Assembly (NCBI GenBank): GCA_951406725.2
Contig: OX597819.1
Coordinates: forward strand, 122,636,001-122,700,000
DNA: 64,000 bases
Reading direction: 5' to 3'
Source of the DNA: Octopus vulgaris
Taxonomy: Eukaryota
The notes beneath the pieces are model-generated. The model had not been told where the DNA came from. It saw only the letters and a list, made by a program, of their open reading frames with translations, and searched no databases. Both the position numbers and the translations under genes were made by a program. Position 1 is the stretch's first letter, and the number at the start of each line of letters is the position of its first letter. This document shows, piece by piece, positions 5,564 through 53,775 of this stretch.

Positions 5564-6345
5564 CTCAAGAGGACATTTCCTCTAGCTGGTTAACGATGCA
5601 CAGTTGCATCTGATAAAATTGCGAGAAGGGGAGCGAACTCCCACCATTTCCTAGCGACGGAACCAGTAGAGCAGTACTGGTTTCGGGCTATTTCTGCTAC
5701 TCCTCAGGACTGGACACTTCGTCTGCGAGAGATGATAGCAGCTCACTTCTGCACGCCTTCATCTCTAACAGACGCTACCATCTCTACAGACGAGGTGTCC
5801 AGTACTGAAAAGTGGCAGAAATAGCACCAAACTAGGCGAGCTGCCAGAAACGTTAGTACGCCGGGCGAAATGCTTAGCGGTATTTCGTCTGCCGTTACGT
5901 TCTGAGTTCAAATTCCGCCGAGGTCGACTTTGCCTTTCATCCTTTCGGGGTCGATTGAATAAGTACCAGTTACGCACTGGGGTCGATTTAATCGACTTAA
6001 TCCGTTTGTCTGTCCTTGTTTGTCCTCTCTGTGTTTAGCCTCTTGTGGGTGGTAAAGAGATAGGTATTTCGTCTGCCGTTACGTTCTGAGTTCAAATTCC
6101 ACCGAAGTTGACTTTGCCTTTCATCGTTTTTGGAATCGATGAATTAAGTACCAGTTACGCACTTTGTTCGTCTCCTCTATGTTAAACCACTTGTGGGCAA
6201 TAAATAGAATAAGAAACAGCACCAAACCAGGACTGGTCTACCGGTCCCGTCGCCAGAAGATGGTAGGAGTTCACTCCCCTGCTTGCAGCAATTTATCGGA
6301 TGCAGCTGTGCATCGTTAACCAGCTAATGGAGATGTCCTCTTGGG
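5564..6345. mobile_element. Foldback/palindromic MITE interrupted by a SINE
   Basis: 5564-5740 is the imperfect reverse complement of 5773-5834 plus 6230-6345 (e.g. agctggttaacgatgcacag / ctgtgcatcgttaaccagct). Confidence 0.8.
5835..6213 (+). mobile_element. SINE family B (MetaSINE-like domain), dimeric
   Basis: Head ggcgagctg..; B-box-like gagttcaaatt; gcctttcatcctttcggggtcgat..aagtaccag; body repeats from about 6064; ~17-bp TSD gaaatagcaccaaacta / gaaacagcaccaaacca. Confidence 0.85.
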
Positions 6346-7032: not shown

Positions 7033-7520
<488 letters not shown>

Positions 7521-22410: not shown

Positions 22411-22834
22411 TAAACATATATACATATATGTAGATAGATAGATAGATAGATAGATATATAGAAATCTGTAAATATCACTTCGTGTTGCTCTCCTATTTCA
22501 CATCACTTACCCCTGTAATCATCGCTCTCCTTCTCTCTATCTCTCTCTCTGTCCCTGTCTCTCTCTCACACACACACACTCTCTCTCTCTTTACTAACAT
22601 ATAAGTATGCAAGTATGAAAGTATTTATATAGGTGTATTAGATATGTGTGTATATATATATGCATGTGTGCGTGCCTGCCTGCATTTAGTGTCAATCTAA
22701 TGAAGAATTTATAACAACAGCACGACACACAAACGCAAAAATGCAACTGTTACTGAAAATGTCATGCAATATCATAAACACGTGATAAGTACGTATCGCG
22801 CGCCCGCACACACACACATACATTTACATATATG

Positions 22835-22946
22835 CATATCACGTTGAAAGCACCGGTTCCCGTCCGAACACCGAAGTTTATCAACGTCGAGTCTAATAAG
22901 TACTAAGATGCGGGGGAACCGCTTGAGAAACGTAGGTGCTGTAAGC
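22835..22946 (+). pseudogene. 5S rRNA pseudogene or 5S-derived repeat
   Basis: catatcacgttgaaagcaccggttcccgtccgaacaccgaagtt..caacgtcgag..agtact..gatg..accgc..ggtgctgtaagc matches metazoan 5S rRNA with many substitutions. Confidence 0.85.
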
Positions 22947-23013
22947 GTCTCACACGTTATAGCCGCAGGAGTGGCTGTGTGGTAAGTAGCTTGCCTACCA
23001 ACCACATAGTTCC

Positions 23014-23195
23014 AGTGAGCAGGTCGCGTTCTCAAAGCGAGGAAAATATTTTGAAAAATTAAATTTAAATGTTGAAGTCAATCTAACGGTTTTGTATTTT
23101 AAAGTGTTTTATAAACACCTTCCACGCTGCAATTGTTTTTGTTTCAGCACACGATCTTAGATCAGGTCACTTGCTATGCAAGTACATCTCCGTAA
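23014..23195 (+). mobile_element. HHR-bearing element (G3-C8 family), 5'-truncated
   Basis: GTGAGCA 23015-23021, gtcgc..gcgag GAAA atatttt, family tail gcacacgatcttagatca..gtacatctcc, then (AT)n. Confidence 0.75.
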
Positions 23196-24380: not shown

Positions 24381-24570
24381 TTGTCAGTGAGCAGATCGCG
24401 TTCTCAAAGCGAGGAAAATATTTTGACAAATTAAACTTAAATGTTGAAGTCAATCTAACGGTTTTGTATTTTTAAATGTCTTATAAACACCTTCCACGTT
24501 GCAATTGTTTTTATTTCAGCACACGATCTTAGATCAAGTCACTTGCTATGAAAGTACATCTCTGTAATAT
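24381..24570 (+). mobile_element. HHR-bearing element (G3-C8 family)
   Basis: ttgtca GTGAGCA ga tcgc-gttctcaaa-gcga g GAAA atat tt tgacaa. Confidence 0.8.
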
Positions 24571-27346: not shown

Positions 27347-27395
<49 letters not shown>

Positions 27396-27404
27396 GCACG
27401 AAGT

Positions 27405-27455
27405 TTTGTCAGTGAACAGGTCGCGGTCTCAAAGCGACGAAAATATTTTGACAAA
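27405..27455 (+). ncRNA. Hammerhead ribozyme variant with G3-C8 core (best copy)
   Basis: TTTGTCA GTGAACA g GTCGC-ggtctcaaa-GCGAC GAAA ATAT TT TGACAAA; perfect stems I and II; palindromic AAATATTT stem III; host element 27393-27593 bounded by (AT)n. Confidence 0.8.
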
Positions 27456-27592
27456 TTAAATTTAAATGTTGAACTGAATCAAACGGTTTTTGTGTGTTTC
27501 TTAAATGGCTTATAAACACCTTCCACGCTGTAATTGCTTTCGTTCTAGCACACGATCTCAGATCAAGTCACTCGCTATGCAAGTACATCCCC

Positions 27593-27651
<59 letters not shown>

Positions 27652-29809: not shown

Positions 29810-31150
29810 ACTACCTACCTATTTCTTTACACAAGGGGCCAAACACAGAGAGAACAAGCAAGGACAAACAAGGACAGACAAACAGATTAAGTGGATTATA
29901 TCGACCCCGAAAGGATGAAAGGCAAAGTCGACCTCGGCGGAATTTGAACTCAGAACGTAACGGCAGACGAAATACGGCTACGCATTTCGCCCGGCGTGCT
30001 AACGTTTCTGCCAGCTCGCCGCCTTTCTACCTACCTACCTACCTTCCTACCTACATACATACATACATACATATTTCTTTTTGCCCACAAGGGGCTACAC
30101 AGAGAGGGGACAAACAAGGACAGACAAAGTGATTAAGTCGATTACATCGGCCCCAGTGCGTAACTGGTACTTTATTTATCGACCCCGAAAGGATGAAAGG
30201 CAAAGTCGACCTTGGCGGAATTTGAACGCAGCACGAAACGGCAGACGAAATACCGCAAAGCATTTCAGCCGGCGTGCTAACGTTTCTGCCAGCTCGCCGC
30301 CTTCCTACCTACCTACCTACCTACATACATACATATTTTCATACTCGTGTCTGTGGAGGACTCAGCCACTTGCAAGTTAATTTCACGAGCAGGCTGTTCT
30401 ATTGATTGGATCATCTGGAACATTCATCCTCATAATTGACGGAATACCAATTTTTTTTTTCGTTTTTTTACGTCCATCATCAGCTGCCCCACAGATATCA
30501 TTATGGTCTCGACACCTGGGCAGTACCAAGATAGACATATTAAAAGGGATCCGTGAGAAAACTCATTTAAATAAAAATATTTAGTTTTAATAGATAAACC
30601 ATGAGTTCAACTCCTGAGCCGGAGAGCGTATCAGTGTTCTTTAAAAAAGCACTTCACTTGAAGTTGTTGTAGTCATCTCTCCCTCCAGGTGTCACATTCT
30701 ACGTCAGTGGTTCCCAACCTGGTGTCCGCGGTCCCTTATTTCTTTATTCCCCACAAGGGACTAAACGTAGTGGGGACAAACAAGGACAGTTAAAGAGATT
30801 AAGTCGATTACATCGACCCCAGTGCGTAACTGGTACTTATTTAATCGACCCCGAAAGGATGAAAGGCAAAGTCGACCTCTGCGGAATTTGAACTCAGAAT
30901 GTAACGGCAGACGAAATACCTATTTCTTTACTACCTACAAGGGGCTAAACACAGAGGAGACTAACAAGGACAGACTGAGGGTTTAAGTCGATTATATCGA
31001 CCCCAGTGCGTAACTGGTACTTATTTAATCGACCCCGAAAGGTTGAAAGGCAAAGTCGACCTCAGAGGAATTTGAACTCAGAACATAACGGCAGACGAAA
31101 TACCGCTAAGCATTTCGCTCGGCGTGCTAACGTTTCTGCCAGCTCGTCAC
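29810..31150 (-). mobile_element. Cluster of SINE family B copies (29810-30025, 30072-30302, dimer 30740-31150)
   Basis: Reverse complement of family B: cgaccccgaaaggatgaaaggcaaagtcgacct..tgccagctcg. Confidence 0.85.
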
Positions 31151-31843
31151 CAGCAGCTTCCCAACCTAGTGGACCGCCAAAGTCGTACTGGAGTCCTTGA
31201 ATTAAATTCGAAATTTCATATATCAATATATATAAAAAAATGTGTTATAATACTATTCCACTGCCATACCAACAATCCAGCATACGTCCATCATCAGCTG
31301 CCCCACAGATATCATTATGGTCTCGACACCTGGGCAGTACCAAGATAGACATATTAAAAGGGATCCGTGGGAAAACTCATTTAAATAAAAAGGGTCCTCA
31401 AAAGGTGAAAAGAGAGAAACCAGAAAAGTTGCCGATGTCTGCACGTGACTACATAGATGCTTAAAATAATTAACGAAAGCATGATACATGTTACCTGGCT
31501 ATAATTACTCTACAGCACTGTAAACATTTTTTGATAACACTAAAATAATATTAAACTGGGATTAATAACATTAAAACGTGGAAATAATTTTAGATGTTAG
31601 GGTGTTGAATTACATTAATTACAAATCGAACCCAGGGTTCCGTCTGTACTTTGGAGTTTTTTGTTATTTAGTTTTATGGGTCAGATGCTAGAGAGCCGTC
31701 TTTAAGTGTCTTGGTCAGTTAGGTCGACCTCTGTACTTATGAAATATACAAATGCAAATGGACTTTGGTACAAGGAAAGATAATTCTGTCAGGCATGAGG
31801 ACTGTAGTAGGATTTCTGTTAGAATGTCACAGTTAATCCCCTT

Positions 31844-46544: not shown

Positions 46545-46865
46545 GGTGGCGAGCTGGCAGAGACGTTAGCATACCGGGCGAAATGCTTAGCGGTATTTCG
46601 TCTGTCATTACGTTCTGAGTTCAAATTCCACCGAGGTCGACTTTGTCTTTCATCCTTTCGGGGTCGATAAATTAAGTACCAGTTACACACTGGAGTCGAT
46701 CTAATCGACTTAATCAGTTTGTCTGTCCTTGTTTGTCCCCTCTGTGTGTAGCCCCTTGTTGGCAGTAAAGAAATAGGTATTTGGACTGTCTTTACGTTCT
46801 GAGTTCAAATTCCGCCAAGGTCGACTTTACTTTTCATCCTTTCGGGGTCGATAAATTAAGTACTA
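46545..46865 (+). mobile_element. SINE family B with partial second body
   Basis: Family B head and body; restart after aaagaaatag at about 46777. Confidence 0.85.
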
Positions 46866-46869
46866 GTCT

Positions 46870-53171: not shown

Positions 53172-53775
53172 AGGTGGCGAGCTGGCAGAATCATTAGAAC
53201 ACCGGGCGAAATGCTTAGCAGTATTTCGTCCGCCGCTACATTCTGAGTTCAAATTCCGACGAGGTCGACTTTGCCTTTCATCCTTTCGGGGTCGATAAAT
53301 TAAGTACCAGTTACGCACTGGGGTCGATGTAATCGACTTAATACCTATGTCTGTCTTTGTTTGTCCCCTCTTTGTTTAGCCCCTTGTGGGTTATAAAGAA
53401 ATAGGTATTTCGTCTGTCGCTACATTCTGAGTTCAAATTCCGCCGAGATCGACTTCACCTTTCATCATTTCGGGATCGATTAAATAAGTACCAGTTACGC
53501 ATTGGGGTCGATAGAATCGACTTAATCCATCTGTCTGTCCTTGTTTTGTCCTCTCTGTGTTTAGCCCCTTGTGGGTAGTAAATAAATAGGTATTTTGTCT
53601 GCCGTTACGTTCTGAGTTCAAATTCCGCCGAAGTCGACTTTGCCTTTCATCCTTTCGAGATCGATTAAATAAGTACCAGTTACGCACTGGGGTCGAGGTA
53701 ATCGACTTAATCCGTTTGTCTGTCTTTGTTTGCCCCCTCTATGTTTAGCCTTTTATGGGCAATAAACAAATAAGA
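53172..53775 (+). mobile_element. SINE family B trimer
   Basis: One head; bodies restart after aaatag at about 53405 and 53590. Confidence 0.9.

Follow-up and report, generated by a model that had tools for sequence, protein, structure and literature searches.

The 5' leader of a Penelope-like retrotransposon in Octopus vulgaris carries a hammerhead motif (HHR) in which the tertiary pair between core positions 3 and 8 reads G3-C8 instead of C3-G8. The copy that we describe lies in a window of 64,000 nucleotides, the whole stretch of DNA that was analysed, and belongs to a family with thousands of short relatives in the genome. On the evidence below, we think it rather probable that this terminal repeat (pLTR) underwent a compensatory swap from C3-G8 to G3-C8, likely retained by selection, and that it encodes a slow, conditional ribozyme predicted to cut after position 27448.

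Hammerhead positions are numbered by the standard scheme, and element position 1 corresponds to window position 27393. The main copy has the following features:

27393-27595, + strand: short pLTR copy from a Penelope-like retrotransposon, spanning the 5' leader and the 30 initial codons; it is inserted in a (TA)n tract and matches both pLTRs of locus L142 at 88% identity
27405-27411, + strand: hammerhead stem I, 5' strand, forming 7 bp with 27449-27455
27412-27418, + strand: core GUGAACA, with G3 at 27412, N7 at 27416 and C8 at 27417
27419, + strand: extra nucleotide G, between A9 and G10.1
27420-27438, + strand: stem II, 27420-27424 with 27434-27438, 5 bp with G10.1-C11.1 and a 9-base loop
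27439-27442, + strand: GAAA box
27442-27447, + strand: palindromic stem III, AAUAUU
27448, + strand: U17; the cut predicted from hammerhead numbering falls between 27448 and 27449
27449-27455, + strand: hammerhead stem I, 3' strand
27505-27594, + strand: start of the retrotransposon ORF (MAYKHLPR...), 30 codons without a stop in the window copy
27540-27595, + strand: "tail" of ~56 bases between the family's two fixed 3' ends, defined by the 3'-end classes among 99 copies

The stretch 27405-27455 has the anatomy of a minimal type I HHR built around the core GUGAACA, with G3 and C8. The three-way junction of stem I, stem II and a short palindromic stem III is present, as are U4, G5, A6 and A9, G12, A13 and A14, the A15.1-U16.1 and G10.1-C11.1 pairs, and H17. 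The literal consensus CUGAnGA is absent, and the Watson-Crick 3-8 pair is retained as G-C. In short, the motif passes every structural HHR test except the literal C3 and G8. A first-pass annotation had already read the stems, core, GAAA box, palindrome, U17 and cut position in this way, and all are confirmed from the sequence; it overlooked the extra G at 27419. Stem II and its 9-base loop are the part that varies among subfamilies.

For the 51-base motif, the predicted fold with stems I and II has an energy of -13.8 kcal/mol (z -2.5), and 2 of 200 shuffles do equally well. A type I descriptor that leaves positions 3 and 8 free finds one site in the window, 27405-27455, and none in 20 shuffled windows. 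By contrast, the bare heptamer GTGANCA occurs 33 times in the window against 32.0 expected, which is chance level, so the heptamer alone carries no meaning. In Rfam, no hammerhead family appears among the 150 listed of 249 window matches, and focused scans give no hammerhead match for 27405-27455 or for a canonical-core sister. With a core reading GUGAACA, the family would, as had been anticipated, be missed by a CUGAnGA descriptor.

Minimal HHRs in Penelope pLTRs were described by Cervera and de la Pena 2014 (PMC4209133), with an extra base between positions 9 and 10.1, a G10.1-C11.1 pair and a palindromic stem III; the authors also reported U3-A8 as a naturally occurring variant and found that activity in the dimeric form is low. 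Among the 56 rows of their alignment, we counted G3 in none, U17 in 23, U3-A8 in two, U3-G8 in one and an extra G in one. The Crassostrea row reads AAUU followed by U, giving a UUU triplet. The octopus motif has the same triplet, which the first-pass annotation considered atypical; with U17 in 23 of 56 published metazoan minimal HHRs, that description does not hold.

Three further copies in the window, one of them with an inverted partner, have decayed:

7262-7464, + strand: decayed copy at 87% identity; G3-C8 persists, both stem I and stem II are broken, z +1.1
7148-7237, - strand: inverted copy covering element positions 48-138 and lying upstream of the 7262 copy, a Penelope-type 5' inversion
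23013-23194, + strand: decayed copy with N7=G, a C11.1 to G change and a truncated stem I
24381-24566, + strand: decayed copy with private changes in common with 23013, G10.1-C11.1 pair lost

These three copies are 86-87% identical to the main one over about 190-200 bases, and only one of the four window copies passes the descriptor with 3 and 8 free. They had been said to vary only at position 7, which is incorrect: the stems of the 7262 copy are broken, and the copies at 23013 and 24381 both combine N7=G with a C11.1 to G change that breaks the closing pair of stem II, to which the 24381 copy adds a G10.1 to A change. An exact pattern for the variant with N7=G and C11.1 to G matches only these two copies genome-wide, so they represent one event, not two, and we rejected an N7=G "subfamily" of just two genomic copies. 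Being decayed, and in two cases non-independent, the three copies lose the value they had been given as evidence of core conservation. The copy at 23013 interrupts a short interspersed repeat, beside which lies a 5S rRNA-like copy (22826-22947; Rfam 69.3 bits) that is probably a pseudogene. A further dispersed repeat family, with members of about 300-370 bases that are 88-91% alike, occupies 30778-31151, 46545-46867, 53173-53546 and 5837-6129.

Patterns were counted genome-wide over an assembly of 2.8 billion bases. An 18-base pattern with positions 3, 7 and 8 free has 7,523 matches, against 3 for a control, in agreement with the initial description of a multi-copy family. G3-C8 is found in 94 of the first 100 matches listed, and the other six are scattered single changes. 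A second, downstream pattern has 7,749 matches. The true copy number is probably higher than these counts, since only one of the four window copies fits the first pattern (inverted partners count separately).

The parent element was found with a pattern just upstream of the element (507 matches), which led to loci with kilobase-spaced pairs. At L142, an inverted pLTR is followed by a pLTR, an ORF region and a second pLTR, with a period of 4,261 bases; both of the L142 pLTRs carry GUGAACA. At L143, an open stretch of 755 residues contains RT motifs, then a CxxxCxxC linker and GIY-YIG motifs, and L142 and L143 place the RT and then the GIY-YIG motifs in a single ORF. All 10 loci from L142 to L151 have pLTR copies in both orientations, and their ORF regions are 96-100% identical; the family is therefore young. 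No fully intact ORF was found in the 20 stretches read. Among Atlas look-alike clusters, at 0.96-0.97, HTH_animal occurs in five of six rows, and RVT_1 with GIY-YIG on part of the members; Pfam returned no family for four protein pieces, and a PDB sequence search gave no match.

The retrotransposon ORF starts at window position 27505, and the HHR motif lies in both pLTRs, 57 bases before the ORF start. Another 22 genomic copies run from the element into the ORF, among them L304, L311 and L319, which carry the window's loop 2. At L026, a copy near the window type, endonuclease sequence lies upstream (89%). Tandem and inverted pLTRs, a tail at one end and microsatellite targets are all present. 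Because the pLTRs flank an RT/GIY-YIG ORF and copies run into that ORF, the short copies are the ends of a protein-coding Penelope-like element with RT and GIY-YIG domains. The family had been taken for a non-autonomous one; L142, L143 and the 22 read-through copies show otherwise. The tandem-looking copies at L073/L074 (C25) are a local duplication, and the adjoining RT was rejected as the parent since it comes from a different Penelope family. L322 holds a local array of element ends, with six or more short copies of the ORF-start region within 3 kb.

The ends of the short copies carry information on how they were made. Ends were mapped for 99 copies from the first 100 listed matches of the downstream pattern, all on contig C1; where sampled, these young copies have G3 in 65 of 69 and C8 in 68 of 73. 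Their 3' ends form two classes, at element positions 138-149 (48 of 99) and 195-203 (50 of 99). At the 5' side, 50 of 99 begin between -7 and +6, six are longer, and 73 begin at or before position 20, so that most copies start about 15 bases before stem I. None of the 99 has its 5' end at positions 55-62, around the predicted cut. For the 26 copies truncated beyond position 20, evenly distributed starts would leave this interval empty by chance with a probability of ~0.06-0.1; the missing starts are weak evidence alone, but there is clearly no peak at the cut site. Both orientations occur at 38 of the 59 loci examined, 31 of them as one short and one long end, and target duplications are visible in L008 and L020.

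The base that precedes short copies starting with AGATG (n=35; for example L017, L029, L197 and L315) is G in 18, C in 12, T in five and A in none, whereas in 28 longer copies it is C or T. This pattern fits a reverse-transcribed cap, although many of these G's could stem from the inverted partner or from a target duplication. Together, the cluster of 5' ends and the G before AGATG in 18 of 35 short copies suggest that transcription starts near position -3, about 15 bases before stem I, which would give a capped RNA. By analogy with Anolis, the protein would nick AT-rich DNA and prime reverse transcription at two internal sites of the RNA, near element positions 145 and 203; extension as far as the RNA 5' end would then yield the thousands of solo copies of 150-205 bases and the head-to-head pairs. 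Since the copies hold the whole ribozyme, the template RNA would be uncut. The sequence at L142:4500-4524, upstream of the element, also resembles a branch point, pyrimidine tract and AG splice acceptor, and a short upstream reading frame there ends at a UGA inside the core.

Because dead copies decay neutrally, only differences between founder lineages count as evidence of selection; within such copies, the core has fared no better than its flanks. Frequent variants within the motif among the 99 young copies lie in loop 2 or keep the pairing (A to G opposite U, 14 of 87). One relative is an older G3-C8 family, represented by 30 loci that are 72-85% identical to the query and include one young-type copy and one with a deletion. 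Position 3 is G in 24 of 29 of them and position 8 is C in 26 of 30, with C or U at N7. Its stems differ from those of the young family in three respects: (i) a stem I pair that is U-A in the young family is G-C; (ii) stem II has gained a sixth pair; (iii) the stem III palindrome has four bases, versus six in the young family. The parent and this older family are identical at 13 of 14 core positions (N7 alone differs) and at 35 of 50 positions in the downstream leader.

Other relatives have the canonical core. Sisters in which CUGAnGA is flanked by identical stem I and stem II letters gave 12 and 41 pattern matches (controls 1 and 0) and form separate old families. Two of them, L273 and L293, have endonuclease remnants upstream that are 38-53% identical to the parent protein. 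Chance double reversion does not account for the 12 canonical matches: none aligns to the young element at E 1e-3. Canonical family C differs from the parent exactly at positions 3 and 8 (12 of 14 core positions identical, 20 of 50 in the leader), a comparison biased by the selecting pattern, which fixed most of the core.

A second, unrelated and very young Penelope family of the same genome has a U3-A8 core in eight of eight loci, and in RT stretches the parent protein is only about 23-31% identical to it. This family is found at L073:8580-10000 with L074:1-1150, at L082-L111 and at L333-L340; its 40 best matches are 99-100% identical, with a tandem period of about 4.4 kb, and its hammerhead, at the element end, has a 4-bp stem II, the palindrome ACCGGU and A17. 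Flanking DNA at L166 and L271 holds two more minimal hammerheads, from other families; the core is C3-G8 in one and U3-A8 in the other.

G12, A13, A14, A9, G5 and A6, and a non-G at 17, are kept in all four families. Stem conservation across genomic copies, on which the first-pass reading depended, is borne out by compensatory stems between founder families, where the stems and the 3-8 pair covary; the independent events are few (four families), and the comparisons use majority sequences of old copies. The swap from C3-G8 to G3-C8 was likely kept by selection: this rests not on the window copies but on the older G3-C8 family, whose core differs just at N7 while its stems are compensated. We dropped the idea that U17 arose to compensate G3, since canonical-core family D also has U17 (L032, L033, L034, L041, L273, L279); U17 is at most a permissive background.

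Would the swapped motif cut? Fold computation gives a pairing probability of 0.67 for G3-U17 in the monomer. A double-hammerhead dimer is computed at -25.4 kcal/mol; two open monomers reach -24.8 and a non-catalytic duplex -30.6, and the cofold minimum differs from the catalytic dimer. Given the G3-U17 wobble and the barely favoured dimer, cutting, if any, is expected to be slow and conditional. It may occur when two copies pair through stem III or when the element's own protein aids folding; full-length tandem transcripts would hold two HHR copies 4.3 kb apart, which could pair. Cutting would then be a side activity, whose most likely role would be to shorten tandem read-through transcripts or to take off the cap. 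Kalweit and Hammann 2013 (PMC3884650) state, as data not shown, that G3-C8 works better with G17 than with C17. Frangieh et al. 2024 (PMC11167929) showed that C3G and G8C each kill a Penelope HHR and that the double change partly restores it; in their system, cutting requires the protein and insertion proceeds without it, and the tail results from reverse transcription that starts at two internal sites.

The main alternative is that the fold is kept without cutting, with the 3-8 pair conserved as a protein-binding or folding signal, or as an attenuated relic in an element that is better off uncut. The copies derive from uncut RNA, HHR mutants of the published Penelope system had no insertion effect and no RNA-seq ends were reported at the cut (PMC11167929), whole Penelope clades have no HHRs (PMC8557442), and the G3-U17 trap and weak dimer point the same way. 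Against it, the residues that the chemistry requires (G12, A13, A14, A9, G5 and A6) and a non-G at 17 persist in all four families, and the same swap, when engineered, partly cuts (PMC11167929). We therefore regard a fold kept without cutting as rather unlikely, though worth serious consideration. Efficient cutting in vivo, with the cut 5' end licensing translation of the ORF 57 bases downstream and the uncut RNA serving as template, would make the motif a switch between messenger and genome. The motif does sit just before the ATG, and type I HHRs in the leaders of fungal viruses have been reported to make translation depend on self-cleavage (PMC13725137), but minimal HHRs are slow in vitro (PMC4209133). 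For the octopus element we consider such a switch improbable. Downstream promoter elements occur about 23-32 bases past a start site, and the core lies at about that distance after the proposed one; yet conserved letters acting as DNA elements of an internal promoter, with an inherited hammerhead likeness no longer under selection, would leave the two-sided changes at 3-8 and in stem I and the palindromic stem III of two lengths unexplained, and this reading is the most improbable that we weighed.

We return to the slow, conditional ribozyme. A more ambitious version of it, which we offer tentatively, is that a purine-3/pyrimidine-8 hammerhead may have worked through at least two amplification waves of one animal Penelope lineage. 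It would have arisen on a U17 background, which sidesteps the G3-C17 trap, and the genome that hosts it contains C3-G8, U3-A8 and G3-C8 side by side. Placed 15 bases from the cap and gated by the protein, it could switch an RNA between staying uncut and being copied, and being cut and meeting a different fate.

It is puzzling that Penelope elements keep hammerheads, since insertion in vitro works without cutting. That positions 3 and 8 both underwent a transversion in nature while the remaining core stayed fixed argues for selection on the catalytic fold in these elements, although the RNA that is copied is the uncut form. The swap is unusually well supported by relatives within the genome and is directly testable: one genome provides a matched natural set (C3-G8, U3-A8 and G3-C8, with C17 or U17) of ready test substrates. 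Penelope clades scored as lacking HHRs by CUGAnGA descriptors warrant a re-scan with free 3-8 pairs. A natural G3-C8 pair appears to be new, whereas engineered G3-C8 rescue and natural U3-A8 were already known, and this is not a new kind of system. In the literature searched, we found no published report of a natural G3-C8 hammerhead; the largest motif survey (Lunse et al. 2017) fell outside that coverage.

Several known systems resemble the octopus family in part. Like non-LTR retrozymes, which are tandem repeats with type I HHRs, the family consists of short HHR-bearing repeats related to Penelope pLTRs. Retrozymes are head-to-tail monomers running from cut to cut with no link to an ORF, an arrangement not seen in the octopus family, whose copies lie scattered, singly or as head-to-head pairs, beginning ahead of the ribozyme and ending inside the ORF. 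Craig et al. 2021 (PMC8557442) described the pLTR, inversion and tail anatomy of Penelope elements, using the string cuganga for searches. Like their Neptune and Nematis elements, whose endonuclease is C-terminal and whose linker resembles a Zn finger, the octopus element has an RT, a CxxxCxxC linker and a GIY-YIG domain with CCHH-type residues, tandem and inverted pLTRs, and microsatellite targets, a likeness of domains and anatomy.

The closest ribozymes are the metazoan Penelope HHRs of PMC4209133, with which the octopus motif shares its presence in both pLTRs, the extra base, G10.1-C11.1, the palindromic stem III, thousands of solo motifs, inverted pairs and a frequent U17. Unlike those HHRs, it has a G3-C8 core, an extra base that is G and a 7-bp stem I. 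Natural covariation of the 3-8 tertiary pair is shared with the U3-A8 hammerheads reported by Perreault et al. 2011 (PMC3088659) and with that of Schistosoma Cercyon, but in the octopus motif position 3 is a purine and position 8 a pyrimidine, which amounts to a double transversion. A further parallel is the Anolis Poseidon element PAc (PMC11167929), in which the HHR likewise sits where pLTR and ORF meet; it too has a pair of fixed 3' ends with a tail within the ORF, inserts at AT-rich targets and is copied from uncut RNA. The octopus HHR differs in lying wholly before the ORF, and the octopus protein in having a Cys linker before the endonuclease. Above all, G3-C8 in PAc is an engineered partial rescue, whereas in the octopus it is the natural state.
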